A stretch of DNA of 64,000 nucleotides from Escherichia coli (GTDB lineage Bacteria > Pseudomonadota > Gammaproteobacteria > Enterobacterales > Enterobacteriaceae): NCBI RefSeq assembly GCF_048403405.1, contig NZ_CP183129.1. One strand, written 5' to 3'. The position numbers were made by a program, and so were the translations under genes. The first letter of the stretch is position 1. Every line of letters starts with the position of its first letter. Of this stretch, positions 12,892 through 45,059 are shown piece by piece. The notes under the pieces were generated by a model, which was not told where the DNA came from, did not search any database, and was given only the letters and a program-made list of their open reading frames with translations.

Positions 12892-15800
12892 AAATTCTCA
12901 GCCTGCGCCTGAAAAACCTGAACTCATTAAAAGGCGAATGGAAGATTGATTTCACCCGCGAGCCGTTCGCCAGCAACGGGCTGTTTGCCATTACCGGCCC
13001 AACCGGTGCGGGGAAAACCACCCTGCTGGACGCCATTTGTCTGGCGCTGTATCACGAAACTCCGCGCCTTTCTAACGTTTCACAATCGCAAAATGATCTC
13101 ATGACCCGCGATACCGCCGAATGTCTGGCGGAAGTGGAGTTTGAAGTCAAAGGTGAAGCGTACCGTGCATTCTGGAGCCAGAATCGGGCGCGTAACCAGC
13201 CGGACGGTAATTTGCAGGTGCCACGCGTAGAGCTGGCGCGCTGCGCCGATGGCAAAATTCTCGCCGACAAAGTGAAAGATAAGCTGGAACTGACGGCGAC
13301 GTTAACCGGACTGGATTACGGGCGCTTCACCCGTTCGATGCTGCTTTCGCAGGGGCAATTTGCTGCCTTCCTGAATGCCAAACCCAAAGAACGCGCGGAA
13401 TTGCTCGAGGAGTTAACTGGCACTGAAATCTACGGGCAAATCTCGGCGATGGTTTTTGAGCAGCACAAATTAGCCCGCACAGAGCTGGAGAAGCTGCAAG
13501 CGCAGGCCAGCGGCGTCGCGTTGCTCACGCCAGAACAAGTGCAATCGCTGACAGCGAGTTTGCAGGTACTTACTGACGAAGAAAAACAGTTACTTACCGC
13601 GCAGCAGCAAGAACAACAATCACTAAACTGGTTAACGCGTCTGGACGAATTGCAGCAAGAAGCCAGCCGCCGTCAACAGGCCTTGCAACAGGCGTTAGCC
13701 GTAGAAGAAAAAGCGCAACCTCAACTGGCGGCGCTCAGTCTGGCACAACCGGCACGAAATCTTCGTCCGCACTGGGAACGCATCGCAGAACACAGCGCGG
13801 CGCTGGCGCATACTCGCCAGCAGATTGAAGAAGTAAATACTCGCTTACAGAGCACAATGGCGCTTCGCGCGAGCATTCGCCACCACGCGGCGAAGCAGTC
13901 AGCAGAATTACAGCAGCAGCAACAAAGTCTGAATGCCTGGTTACAGGAACACGACCGCTTCCGTCAGTGGAACAACGAACTGGCGGGTTGGCGTGCGCAG
14001 TTCTCCCAACAAACCAGCGATCGCGAGCATCTGCGGCAATGGCAGCAACAGTTAACCCATGCAGAGCAAAAACTTAATGCGCTTGCGGCGATCACGTTGA
14101 CGTTAACCGCCGATGAAGTTGCTAGCGCCCTGGCGCAACATGCTGAGCAACGCCCACTGCGTCAGCGCCTGGTCGCGCTGCATGGACAGATTGTTCCCCA
14201 ACAAAAACGCCTGGCGCAATTACAGGTCACTATCCAGAATGTCACGCAAGAACAGACGCAACGTAACGCCGCACTTAACGAAATGCGCCAGCGTTATAAA
14301 GAAAAGACGCAGCAACTTGCCGATGTGAAAACCATTTGCGAGCAGGAAGCGCGCATCAAAACGCTGGAAGCTCAACGTGCACAGTTACAGGCGGGTCAGC
14401 CTTGTCCACTTTGTGGTTCCACCAGCCACCCGGCGGTCGAGGCGTATCAGGCGCTGGAGCCTGGCGTTAATCAGTCTCGATTACTGGCGCTGGAAAACGA
14501 AGTTAAAAAGCTCGGTGAAGAAGGTGCGACGCTACGTGGGCAACTGGATGCATTAACGAAGCAGCTTCAGCGCGATGAAAACGAAGCGCAAAGCCTCCGA
14601 CAAGATGAGCAAGCACTTACTCAACAATGGCAAGCCGTCACGGCCAGCCTCAATATCACCTTGCAGCCACAGGACGATATTCAACCGTGGCTGGATGCAC
14701 AAGATGAGCACGAACGCCAGCTGCGGTTACTCAGCCAACGGCATGAATTACAAGGGCAGATTGCCGCGCATAATCAGCAAATTATCCAGTATCAACAGCA
14801 AATTGAACAACGCCAGCAGCAGCTCTTAACGGCATTGGCGGGTTATGCGCTGACATTGCCACAGGAAGATGAAGAAGAGAGCTGGTTGGCGACGCGTCAG
14901 CAAGAAGCGCAGAGCTGGCAGCAACGCCAGAACGAATTAACCGCGCTGCAAAACCGTATTCAGCAACTGACGCCGATTCTGGAAACGTTGCCGCAAAGTG
15001 ATGAACTCCCGCACTGCGAAGAAACTGTGGTACTGGAAAACTGGCGGCAGGTACATGAACAATGTCTCGCACTACACAGCCAGCAACAGACGTTACAGCA
15101 ACAGGACGTTCTGGCGGCGCAAAGTCTGCAAAAAGCCCAGGCGCAGTTTGACACCGCGCTACAGGACAGCATTTTTGACGATCAGCAGGCATTTCTTGCG
15201 GCGTTAATGGATGAGCAGACGCTAACGCAGCTGGAACAGCTGAAACAGAATCTGGAAAACCAGCGTCGTCAGGCGCAAGCGTTGGCCATTCAGACAGCTG
15301 AAACGCTGGCACAGCATCAGCAACACCGACCTGACGGCCTGGATCTCAGTGTGACGGTGGAGCAGATTCAGCAAGAGTTAGCGCAAACTCAGCAAAAGTT
15401 GCGTGAAAACACCACCAGTCAGGGCGAGATTCGCCAGCAGCTGAAGCAGGATGCAGACAACCGTCAGCAACAACAAACCTTAATGCAGCAAATTGCTCAA
15501 ATGACGCAGCAGGTTGAGGACTGGGGATATCTGAATTCGCTAATAGGTTCCAAAGAGGGCGATAAATTCCGCAAGTTTGCCCAGGGGCTGACGCTGGATA
15601 ATTTAGTCCATCTCGCTAATCAGCAACTTACCCGGCTGCACGGGCGCTATCTGTTACAGCGCAAAGCCAGCGAGGCGCTGGAAGTCGAGGTTGTTGATAC
15701 CTGGCAGGCAGATGCGGTACGCGATACCCGTACCCTTTCTGGCGGCGAAAGTTTCCTCGTCAGTCTGGCGCTGGCACTGGCGCTTTCAGATCTGGTCAGC

Positions 15801-21105: not shown

Positions 21106-21362
21106 TGTTCTTCCACCTTACTTTTATTTCGTCGTTAATTACCGGGCAAGCGCTAAGCACCACTGCTGACACTTACCTGTGCTACAAATGACAAAAAGCG
21201 TAGCAGCAGACCTGCACGGCATAATGTAAAGATTCCAAATGATTCCAGTAATGGATTGTTATTGTTTAATATTCTAATTATTTGAAAAACATGAATTGTG
21301 AAAAATGTGACGCAGATCCCTTGTGGCGGCACTCAGAATCCCTTCCGAGCAGTCTGATGCGG

Positions 21363-21563
<201 letters not shown>

Positions 21564-21603
21564 TTATTTCACGGGATGAACGTTAAGTATAGGCGCTCGA
21601 AAA

Positions 21604-22128
21604 TCAACAATTGATCGTCTGTGCCAGGGCACTGCGAATTTCAGAAATCACCTGGCTGGGTTCGTTTGTTGCGTCGATGATAATATGCGCAACTTCGCGA
21701 TATAGCGCATCGCGTTCTTCCAGCACTTCCTGAACTTCTTCGCTCAGCGGTTTCCCCGTTAAGGTTGGCCGTAAATCTTCTTCCGGTGCAGCTTGCAGTC
21801 GGTTAACCAGGACTGATACTGGCGCACACAAATAAACCACGATCCCGTTATTTTGCATAAAGTGACGATTAAATTCCGTCAGAATAATGCCGCCGCCCGT
21901 AGCGATAACGGTGGATGGCGCAGTTACCGCTTCCAGCGCCGCCGTTTCTCTGGCGCGGAATCCCGCCCACTCTTCCCTTTCGACGATCTCCGCGACCGTC
22001 ATATTGAGCTGTGATTGCAACCACTGGTCGGTATCGACAAATCGACGGTTAAGCGAATCGGCAAGGGCCATTCCGACCGTTGTTTTACCACAGCCCCGAG
22101 GCCCGATCAGAAAAAGAGGTTGTGTCAT
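21604..22128 (-). CDS. aroL: Shikimate kinase II
   Basis: 174-aa [39 protein letters not shown]... with P-loop GPRGCGKTT. Confidence 0.96.
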
Positions 22129-22195
22129 CGTGGGTTTTCCCCAATAGGTCGCAATGCGGCGAAAGCCGGTGTCATGAGAATAGCGATCATACCAT

Positions 22196-22310
22196 CAAAC
22201 TAGTACAATTTCGATTGTAAAGAAAAAATTCCACTTAAAGTGAAAATCTCGATACACCCCTTACTATACCAATAAATATTCAAGAATGAAGTGTAAATAA
22301 TAAATTACAT
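22196..22310 (-). promoter_or_regulatory. aroL promoter region with TyrR-box-like and TrpR-operator-like motifs
   Basis: TGTAAA-N6-ATTACA at about 22292-22309, a weaker TGTAAA-N6-ATTCCA at about 22216-22233, and AACTAGTAC (trp operator half-site-like) at about 22199-22207; aroL is known to be TyrR/TrpR-regulated. Confidence 0.55.
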
Positions 22311-22769
22311 TTAGCCACGACTACGTTGCACTTCCAGCCACCACTTCTCCAGCTCCGCGGCAAAGGCCTGGCGGTCACGTTGTGAAAGGCTATCTGGTCC
22401 CCCGGTCTGGATCCCACTGGCGCGTAAGGTATCCATAAAATCGCGCATCGTCAGGCGCTCACGAATGGTCGCTGGCGTGTAACGTTCGCCGCGTGGATTA
22501 AGCGCCGCCGCGCCTTTCTCGATGGCTTCAGCAGCCAAAGGAATATCTGCGGTGATCACCAAATCGCCCGCTTCACACTGCCGGACAATTTCGTTATCGG
22601 CAACGTCGAAACCTGCCGCGACGCGCAGCGTACGAATAAATCGCGATGGCGGCACGCGTAAACTCTGGTTTGCTACCAGTACCAGCGGCATCTGCATACG
22701 TTCCGCCGCGCGATACAAAATCTCTTTAATTACATTGGGACACGCGTCGGCATCCACCCAAATTGTCAT
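22311..22769 (-). CDS. yaiI: UPF0178 family protein YaiI
   Basis: Matches Yai[36 protein letters not shown]...; start at the internal ATG (complement of 22767-22769) for the 152-aa length. Confidence 0.88.
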
Positions 22770-22888
22770 AAAGTCATCCTTTGTTGGGTAATCCTCTATT
22801 GTGTCGCGCTTTTGCCTTCCGGCATAGTTCTGTTTATGCTTCTGCCAGCGATTATCAAAACAATGAATTTCACGGCAGGAGTGAGGCA

Positions 22889-23698
22889 ATGGAAAAGAAA
22901 ATCGGTTTTATTGGCTGCGGCAATATGGGAAAAGCCATTCTCGGCGGTCTGATTGCCAGCGGTCAGGTGCTTCCAGGGCAAATCTGGGTATATACTCCCT
23001 CCCCGGATAAAGTCTCCGCCCTGCATGACCAGTTCGGCATCAACGCCGCAGAATCGGCGCAAGAAGTGGCGCAAATCGCCGACATCATTTTTGCCGCCGT
23101 TAAACCTGGCATCATGATTAAAGTGCTTAGCGAAATCACCTCCAGCCTGAATAAAGACTCTCTGGTCGTTTCTATTGCTGCAGGTATCACACTCGACCAG
23201 CTTGCCCGCGCGCTGGGCCATGACCGGAAAATTATCCGCGCCATGCCGAACACTCCCGCGCTGGTTAATGCCGGGATGACCTCCGTAACACCAAACGCGC
23301 TGGTAACCCCAGAAGATACCGCTGATGTGCTGAATATTTTCCGCTGCTTTGGCGAAGCGGAAGTAATTGCCGAGCCGATGATCCACCCGGTGGTCGGTGT
23401 GAGCGGTTCTTCGCCAGCCTACGTCTTTATGTTTATCGAAGCGATGGCCGACGCTGCCGTGCTGGGCGGGATGCCACGCGCCCAGGCGTATAAATTTGCC
23501 GCTCAGGCGGTAATGGGTTCCGCAAAAATGGTGCTGGAAACGGGAGAACATCCGGGGGCACTGAAAGATATGGTCTGCTCACCGGGAGGCACCACCATTG
23601 AGGCGGTACGCGTACTGGAAGAGAAAGGCTTCCGTGCCGCAGTGATCGAAGCGATGACGAAGTGTATGGAAAAATCAGAAAAACTCAGTAAATCCTGA
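22889..23698 (+). CDS. proC: Pyrroline-5-carboxylate reductase
   Basis: Matches Pro[37 protein letters not shown]...; start at the ATG at 22889 (269 aa); divergent from yaiI. Confidence 0.95.
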
Positions 23699-44500: not shown

Positions 44501-45059
44501 TGTTAAAGAGAAAAATATTCAGATTGCAGACCAGGTAATTATTGATGAAACTGCAGGTGAAGTTGTTATCGGCGCGAATACCCGTATTTGTCACGGTGCC
44601 GTTATTCAGGGTCCGGTAGTGATTGGCGCAAACTGCCTGATAGGTAATTATGCGTTTATTCGTCCTGGCACAATAATCAGCAATGGCGTAAAAATTGGCT
44701 TCGCCACCGAAATTAAAAATGCGGTTATTGAAGCGGAAGCAACGATTGGTCCGCAATGCTTTATTGCCGACTCGGTAGTTGCAAACCAGGCATATTTGGG
44801 CGCACAAGTACGAACCAGTAATCATCGTCTGGATGAACAGCCCGTGTCTGTTCGAACTCCCGAGGGAATTATCGCTACCGGATGCGATAAATTAGGTTGT
44901 TATATCGGGCAGCGTTCACGCCTTGGCGTACAAGTTATTATTTTGCCTGGGCGAATTATTTCCCCGAACACGCAACTTGGCCCGCGCGTGATTGTAGAAC
45001 GTAATTTACCTACCGGAACTTATTCACTCCGACAAGAACTTATCCGTACAGGAGATTAA
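44349..45059 (+). CDS. yaiX: Hexapeptide-repeat (left-handed beta-helix) acyltransferase-like protein YaiX, uninterrupted; start uncertain
   Basis: Repetitive [LIV]-G-x-x-x-x hexads (VVIGANTRICHGAVIQGPVVIGANCLIGNYAFIRPGTIISNGVKIG...). The ORF begins 150 bp inside yaiP with no ATG/GTG right after the yaiP stop, so the true start may be internal or non-canonical. I recall K-12 has this gene disrupted by IS2; no IS here. Confidence 0.7.
   Translation: MPSGLFMDLLPFLLDANLSATNPPAIPHWWKRQPLIPNLLSQELKNFLKLNVKEKNIQIADQVIIDETAGEVVIGANTRICHGAVIQGPVVIGANCLIGNYAFIRPGTIISNGVKIGFATEIKNAVIEAEATIGPQCFIADSVVANQAYLGAQVRTSNHRLDEQPVSVRTPEGIIATGCDKLGCYIGQRSRLGVQVIILPGRIISPNTQLGPRVIVERNLPTGTYSLRQELIRTGD

Follow-up and report, generated by a model that had tools for sequence, protein, structure and literature searches.

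Does the short stretch of DNA between yaiI and aroL hold the operator through which TyrR and TrpR both act on aroL, and how are the sites of these two regulators arranged around the start of transcription? The locus lies in a window of 64,000 nucleotides (the whole stretch of DNA that was analyzed), which belongs to Escherichia coli and in which proC, yaiI, aroL, yaiA and aroM follow each other in the same order as in the K-12 MG1655 record. An initial annotation, made from the letters of the DNA, had placed TyrR-box-like and TrpR-like motifs upstream of aroL, between positions 22196 and 22310, and had related them to the known dual control of this gene. As detailed below, the segment is, with high confidence, the known E. 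coli aroL promoter-operator under dual TyrR/TrpR control. This operator is already known, and nothing new on the control of aroL in E. coli is added here.

Four genes of the locus, all encoded on the minus strand of the window, frame the analysis:

yaiI coding sequence, 22311..22769, minus strand: DUF188 protein, from the list of open reading frames and the RefSeq annotation; stop codon TAA at 22313-22311.
aroL coding sequence, 21604..22128, minus strand: shikimate kinase II, 174 amino acids, the regulated gene; the A of its ATG is at 22128.
yaiA, 21554-21363, minus strand.
aroM, 21105-20428, minus strand.

The aroL coding sequence was assigned from the list of open reading frames and from the RefSeq annotation of identical or near-identical DNA. 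The yaiI-aroL spacer covers 22129-22310, i.e., 182 bp, and is core-genome DNA. Indeed, a 1401-bp stretch around it, annotated as proC/yaiI/aroL/yaiA, was found with 95-100% identity in 5425 of the 5426 complete E. coli genomes, and the 182-bp spacer alone was likewise found in 5425/5426 genomes, with at least 95% identity in all but one. Alignment with the characterized K-12 region, which the initial annotation had proposed as a check, established that the spacer is identical to that of MG1655 at 181 of its 182 positions (241-base alignment centered on the spacer, one mismatch). Whatever was mapped in K-12 is therefore also present here. The sole difference in the spacer is at window position 22251, a C instead of the T of K-12, and corresponds to position 6 of a weak TyrR box (box 2, see below); as this position is already non-consensus in the K-12 box, its match count is unchanged. 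Between yaiI and aroL, no intrinsic terminator was found, i.e., no terminator-like hairpin followed by a T-run. An Rfam scan of 21300-22900 returned no matches at E<=1, and the region thus contains no known leader RNA element.

TyrR boxes are 18-bp palindromes of consensus TGTAAA-N6-TTTACA, which are called strong when at least 10 of the 12 defined positions are matched and weak when fewer are; the G and C of the G-N14-C motif are essential, and a weak box functions only with a strong one beside it (PMC4374768). Inspection of the spacer revealed exactly three G-N14-C boxes of this type, together with one TrpR-type site. The boxes are named here with the numbering used for K-12:

TyrR box 3 (strong), 22292..22309, minus strand: gene strand TGTAATTTATTATTTACA; 11/12 to TGTAAA-N6-TTTACA; G-N14-C kept.
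TyrR box 2 (weak), 22239..22256, minus strand: gene strand TGTATCGAGATTTTCACT; 8/12; G-N14-C kept.
TyrR box 1 (strong), 22216..22233, minus strand: gene strand TGGAATTTTTTCTTTACA; 10/12; G-N14-C kept.

With 11/12 and 10/12 matches, boxes 3 and 1 are strong under the rule of at least 10/12, and the weak box 2 is separated from the strong box 1 by 5 bp only. The centers of boxes 3 and 1 are 76 bp apart and those of boxes 2 and 1 are 23 bp apart. In sequence and position, the boxes thus show the hallmarks expected of TyrR boxes: the consensus score, the G-N14-C motif, a weak box next to a strong one and a location at a promoter of the TyrR regulon. On the plus strand, box 3 reads TGTAAATAATAAATTACA (22292-22309); it starts 1 nt past the yaiI stop codon, and the aroL ATG follows 164 nt downstream of its gene-proximal edge, in full agreement with the TGTAAA-N6-ATTACA box that had been noticed right after yaiI, at ~165 bp from aroL. 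The second box of the initial annotation, described as weaker, was recovered as box 1 (plus strand, TGTAAAGAAAAAATTCCA at 22216-22233); it is in place, but with 10/12 matches it still counts as strong. The two boxes that had been named are therefore genuine, but the total is three, the weak box at 22239-22256 having been missed.

The third type of motif pointed out, a TrpR-like sequence nearer the gene, was also recovered, as the nonamer AACTAGTAC at 22198-22206 on the plus strand. This nonamer is one half of a longer element:

TrpR operator-like site, 22189..22206, minus strand: gene strand GTACTAGTTTGATGGTAT; 13/18 overall.

The TrpR operator is a dyad of ~18 bp with CTAG in both halves, and its consensus, last two bases included, reads GTACTAGTTAACTAGTAC. 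Most of this string, GTACTAGTTAACTAGT, has been printed (PMC2811016). Compared with the consensus, the left half of the aroL site is perfect (9/9), while the right half matches at 4/9 positions and does not contain CTAG. A search for the full TrpR palindrome at up to 3 mismatches gave no match, and the site is therefore best described as a half-consensus operator. The range first proposed, 22196-22310, holds the TyrR boxes but cuts off the right half of this operator, which runs to 22189.

How these elements relate to transcription can be read from published start-site maps, which were transferred to the window. Cappable-seq coordinates refer to U00096.2, and an offset of +776 to the current K-12 record was verified from the position that Kim et al. 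(2012) give for aroL, 405629-406153 (PMC3415461). Kim et al. (2012) report a single aroL start in K-12, at NC_000913 (version.2) 405502, with 136 reads and a 5' UTR of 127 nt (PMC3415461). The 51-nt upstream string that they print is found verbatim in the window and ends exactly at 22255, and the same start, 405502, was detected by Cappable-seq in MG1655 grown in M9 glucose, with an RRS of 4.7 (PMC4782308). In the same data set, a second start is found at 405579 (U00096.2; RRS 7.35, enrichment 3.9), which corresponds to window position 22178 and lies 8 nt after a TATGAT hexamer (PMC4782308). These positions, together with the hexamers found at the appropriate distances, define the following elements:

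Main (distal) aroL promoter, 22263..22290, minus strand: -35 TTCATT at 22290-22285, 16-nt spacer, -10 TATAGT at 22268-22263.
Main aroL transcription start (G), 22255, minus strand: 127-nt 5' UTR; U00096.2 405502, equal to U00096.3 406278.
Proximal promoter candidate, 22178..22214, minus strand: -35 TCGAAA at 22214-22209, 17-nt spacer, extended -10 TGg-TATGAT at 22191-22186.

The distal hexamers stand at the correct distance from the published start but failed a scan that required 9/12 consensus positions; this promoter is therefore weak by consensus. Conversely, the proximal candidate, with 9/12 positions and the TG of an extended -10, is the only promoter-like match obtained when 22050-22400 was scanned, and a start near 22178 would give a 51-nt leader. 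Relative to the main start, box 3 spans -54..-37 and abuts the -35 hexamer, box 2 spans -1..+17 and box 1 spans +23..+40 of the transcript, so that the TyrR boxes flank and cover the mapped start. The TrpR-like site spans +50..+67 of the main transcript, which corresponds to -28..-11 with respect to the proximal promoter candidate: the end of box 1 precedes the proximal -35 by 2 bp, and the TrpR-like site fills the proximal spacer and -10. The description of the motifs as lying upstream of aroL holds with respect to the gene, as all of them are 5' of it; boxes 2 and 1 and the TrpR site are nevertheless inside the 127-nt leader, downstream of the main start.

Several other features of transcription at this locus were noted. 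A minor antisense start (U00096.2 405540, K-12 minus strand, 4 reads; Kim et al., PMC3415461) corresponds to window position 22217 on the plus strand and points from the aroL operator to yaiI and proC. The hexamer TACAAT (22203-22208, plus strand) is its likely -10 and overlaps the TrpR half-site. Downstream, yaiA has a strong start of its own, at U00096.2 406178, whose Cappable-seq RRS of 719 is ~100-150 times that of either aroL start (PMC4782308). This start is 25 nt upstream of the yaiA ATG with a TATACT -10 behind it (window 21579-21610, minus strand, at the 3' end of aroL and in the aroL-yaiA spacer), and Kim et al. also list 406178 and 406145 at yaiA (PMC3415461). Most transcription of yaiA(-aroM) is therefore probably independent of the aroL operator. 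Within the aroL leader, at 22140-22165 (minus strand), ~15-35 nt upstream of the ATG and just upstream of the ribosome-binding site, a small hairpin can be drawn by eye, TCGC-loop-GCGA in E. coli and CCGC-loop-GCGG in Leclercia, Raoultella and UBA5654, which looks like a compensatory change. RNAalifold, applied to the last 58 nt of the leader in a MAFFT alignment of 13 sequences, gave no consensus structure and did not recover this hairpin. In addition, the clinical isolate E. coli 18AR0366 (NZ_CM132283.1) carries an IS1A insertion (1730-2500 of the extracted locus) with a 9-bp target duplication, TAGTAAGGG, at the equivalent of ~22257-22265. The element is located exactly between the distal -10 and the aroL +1, with box 3 and the main promoter on one side of it and boxes 2 and 1, the TrpR site and the gene on the other.

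As the spacer is AT-rich, with a GC content of 0.36 versus 0.51 for the window, it could be argued that such motifs arise by chance, or that box 3, a palindrome placed right behind the yaiI stop codon, is a 3'-end or terminator element of yaiI. Across the window, boxes with at most one mismatch number 1 versus 0.21 expected, those with at most two mismatches 5 versus 2.7 expected, and GTACTAGT 1 versus 0.37 expected; the excess at two mismatches is not significant by itself. Two of these five boxes, however, sit 76 bp apart in the yaiI-aroL spacer. The other three (13832-13849, 44993-45010 and 56864-56881), each with 2 mismatches, are in the number expected by chance. To account for base composition, the spacer itself was shuffled 200,000 times with dinucleotides preserved. 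A box with at most one mismatch appeared in 310/200,000 shuffles, such a box accompanied by a second, non-overlapping box with at most two mismatches in 5/200,000, and GTACTAGT in 359/200,000, whereas the three together never appeared (0/200,000). Other data also argue against chance or a terminator element. The box 3 palindrome consists of A/T pairs but for one G-C pair and is not part of a hairpin with a T-run. In Klebsiella, Raoultella and Enterobacter JUb54, the DNA preceding the distal box can no longer be aligned with the 3' end of yaiI, and in K. pneumoniae, KPN_00331 has its mapped start just upstream of aroL (PMC3415461). Finally, across genera the bases around the boxes vary, whereas the positions that make up their consensus are the invariant columns. 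Chance, or a yaiI terminator, is thus effectively refuted by the shuffles, the invariant columns and the lack of a T-run hairpin, and retains a vanishingly small probability.

The conservation of the region was assessed by scanning one genome per species with a DNA pattern for the AroL P-loop, which yielded 17 enterobacterial aroL loci. The 215 bp upstream of the ATG were then aligned for 19 sequences from about 7 genera: the window, K-12, five other Escherichia lineages, Superficieibacter, Leclercia, Silvania, Enterobacter, Raoultella, K. pneumoniae and one MAG. The columns of this alignment were 61% identical on average. Over the 19 sequences, the invariant columns of box 3 are TG..A......TTTACA and those of box 1 are.G.AA.......TTTAC, the G and C of G-N14-C in both boxes being invariant in 19/19. 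Outside these boxes, no column is invariant except the "TA" of the proximal -10, two positions in the leader, a G close to the ribosome-binding site and the ATG. Conservation thus independently shows these boxes to be maintained by selection. Box 2 departs from this pattern. Its conservation is poor already among Escherichia lineages, where it ranks last of the elements, and the cryptic clades lose its right arm along with the C of G-N14-C.

The spacing of the two strong boxes, distal and proximal, falls into classes. Their centers are 76 bp apart in Escherichia and 74-76 bp apart in Superficieibacter, most Leclercia and Silvania, versus 63-65 bp in Klebsiella, Raoultella, Enterobacter JUb54 and UBA5654, and 56 bp in one Leclercia MAG. 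These spacing classes differ by roughly whole helical turns, as would be expected for a looped complex whose boxes face one TyrR oligomer. The TrpR half-site is more patchy. In 15/19 sequences, GTACT[AC]G is found at 27-28 bp from the box 1 start, so that conservation of the TrpR site at a fixed offset extends to most of the orthologues. It is kept in Escherichia, Superficieibacter, Leclercia, Silvania hatchlandensis and UBA5654, and absent in the remaining 4/19, i.e., Klebsiella, Raoultella, Enterobacter JUb54 and S. confinis. In a comparative genomics study of Enterobacteriales, TyrR control of aroL was predicted in 10 genomes and TrpR control in 4 (PMC5343134). The patchy occurrence of the putative half-site agrees with this restriction of the TrpR-aroLM link to a few Enterobacteriales (PMC5343134). 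In the Klebsiella group (K. pneumoniae, Raoultella and Enterobacter JUb54), a weak box precedes the distal strong box by 23 bp, in the region ~150-190 nt upstream of aroL. In this group, the operator is rewired around two conserved strong boxes.

Among known systems, the closest is the K-12 aroL promoter-operator itself, which has the same locus, the same gene order, three TyrR boxes, a single TrpR site and the exact published start-site string, and which differs from the window by the single SNP at 22251 (C versus T in K-12). It was described by DeFeyter et al. in 1986, by Heatwole and Somerville in 1992 and by Lawley and Pittard in 1994. The abstract of the last study reportedly states that aroL has three TyrR boxes and one TrpR site. 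The same work is said to be the origin of the box numbering and to have reported TyrR binding on the K-12 sequence, a requirement for boxes 1 and 3 with box 2 being dispensable, and looping accompanied by phased DNase I hypersensitivity. An IHF site was reportedly proposed as well; in the window, the IHF core consensus WATCAANNNNTTR gave no match at up to 1 mismatch inside 22129-22310. Regarding TrpR, in vitro protection and lacZ fusions attributed to Heatwole and Somerville (1992) and to Lawley and Pittard (1994) are said to have demonstrated TrpR binding and ~2-fold repression. The 1994 study is also reported to have found that the effect of TrpR on aroL depends on TyrR, and that inserting 4 bp between box 1 and the TrpR site strengthened repression by tyrosine and abolished the effect of tryptophan.

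The aroF-tyrA operator offers a second point of comparison. It consists of two adjacent boxes and a third, distal one, and is subject to tyrosine-dependent repression by the TyrR hexamer. Its adjacent boxes share the 23-bp center spacing of aroL boxes 2 and 1. The aroF boxes are nevertheless upstream of or over the -35, whereas in aroL boxes 2 and 1 are at or downstream of +1 and the promoter lies between the distal and proximal boxes; moreover, aroF has no TrpR site. With the TrpR operators of trpLEDCBA, aroH, trpR and mtr, aroL has the CTAG-centered half-site in common, GTACTAGTT being the left half of the consensus (PMC2811016), and mtr, like aroL, is under both TyrR and TrpR (bioRxiv 10.64898/2025.12.20.695731). 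In contrast to these operators, the aroL site has only one good half (13/18 overall), is located at +50..+67 rather than over the main promoter, and the TrpR effect reported for it is small and TyrR-dependent. K. pneumoniae aroL also has distal and proximal strong boxes, ~64 bp apart, with the proximal box in the leader. However, its start is 3 nt after the distal box (PMC3415461), which covers the -10, its weak box is 23 bp upstream of the distal box and not beside the proximal one, and the TrpR half-site is lacking.

The regulation of aroL(M) by both proteins is supported by the literature, as it has been reported to be repressed by TyrR and by TrpR (PMC5343134; bioRxiv 10.64898/2025.12.20.695731), and knock-down of tyrR increases aroL expression (bioRxiv 10.64898/2025.12.20.695731). 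The arrangement found in the spacer, three TyrR boxes and one TrpR-type site, fits this dual control, as the initial annotation had proposed. The mechanism that would best account for the arrangement draws on the literature, or on inference, for the binding of TyrR and TrpR, the looping by the hexamer and the cooperation of the two regulators. When tyrosine and ATP are available, TyrR would assemble into a hexamer, which would bind both the strong box 3, just upstream of the -35, and the box 2/box 1 pair, over the start and the early leader. Bridging of sites ~53-76 bp apart would trap the weak TTCATT-16-TATAGT promoter in a small loop, and the looped, occluded main promoter would leave aroL-yaiA-aroM repressed. 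Tryptophan-bound Trp repressor would then bind the half-consensus operator, at a constant distance of 27 bp from where box 1 starts, and add a modest extra repression that depends on TyrR.

Why TrpR should depend on TyrR may have a different answer if aroL is transcribed from two promoters. In such an extension of the main explanation, TrpR would occlude the proximal promoter (TCGAAA-17-TGgTATGAT, start ~22178) without touching TyrR, and its effect would be seen only in tyrR+ cells, where the stronger distal promoter is shut off. Several observations point to this scenario: the TrpR site covers -28..-11 of the proximal promoter, which is the sole consensus-scan promoter of the spacer, and its -10 "TA" is invariant in about 7 genera, including those that do not have the TrpR half-site. 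The trp operator similarly overlaps the trp promoter. The reported 4-bp insertion would hit the proximal -35 or its immediate vicinity and could by that alone inactivate the promoter; a dead proximal promoter would explain both the stronger repression by tyrosine and the lost effect of tryptophan. In M9 glucose, the Cappable-seq RRS of the proximal start even exceeds that of the distal one, 7.35 versus 4.7 (PMC4782308). Set against this, Kim et al. (2012) give only the distal start for aroL, the start mapped in K. pneumoniae is also distal (PMC3415461), the proximal -35 is poorly conserved outside Escherichia and Leclercia, and the start base, C, is unusual. On balance, this extension is possible, with the odds against it, and the stronger statement that aroL has two promoters and that the TyrR/TrpR "synergism" reflects a promoter hierarchy instead of protein-protein contact is a tentative one that is rather doubtful.

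Conversely, the TrpR-like motif might have no meaningful role in vivo, TyrR alone governing aroL, with the conservation of the motif resulting from the proximal -10 or from other constraints. Its right half-site, as noted, matches at 4/9 positions only, and Klebsiella, Raoultella and Enterobacter JUb54 do without the site. CTAG is, however, a rare tetramer in enterobacteria, and GTACTAG, which contains it, keeps a fixed offset of 27-28 bp to box 1 in at least four genera, although the bases around it have diverged there. The older protection and lacZ-fusion data also speak against this reading, since they reportedly gave TrpR binding and ~2-fold repression. In a CRISPRi study of 2025, aroL responded to tyrR while no trpR effect was detected: silencing trpR, singly or with a tyrR knock-down, did not significantly change aroL transcripts or a P_aroL reporter (bioRxiv 10.64898/2025.12.20.695731). 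In vivo, the TrpR site therefore has little weight, or a weight that varies with conditions, although those of the CRISPRi experiments may not have been tryptophan-replete and tyrosine-repressing. Comparative genomics moreover places aroLM in the TrpR regulon (PMC5343134). Control by TyrR alone thus appears unlikely, and dual control by TyrR and TrpR is the reading retained here.

The main value of this analysis is that of a positive control, a textbook operator having been recognized from raw sequence alone. Beyond E. coli, the cross-genus footprint identifies the two strong TyrR boxes as the conserved core of the region, around which the weak box, the position of the main promoter and the TrpR site shift or vanish between genera. 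The analysis also leads to a testable suggestion, namely that a conserved secondary promoter may underlie the odd TyrR-dependence of TrpR repression, and the IS1A insertion in 18AR0366 would provide a natural test of whether the proximal promoter suffices for aroL.
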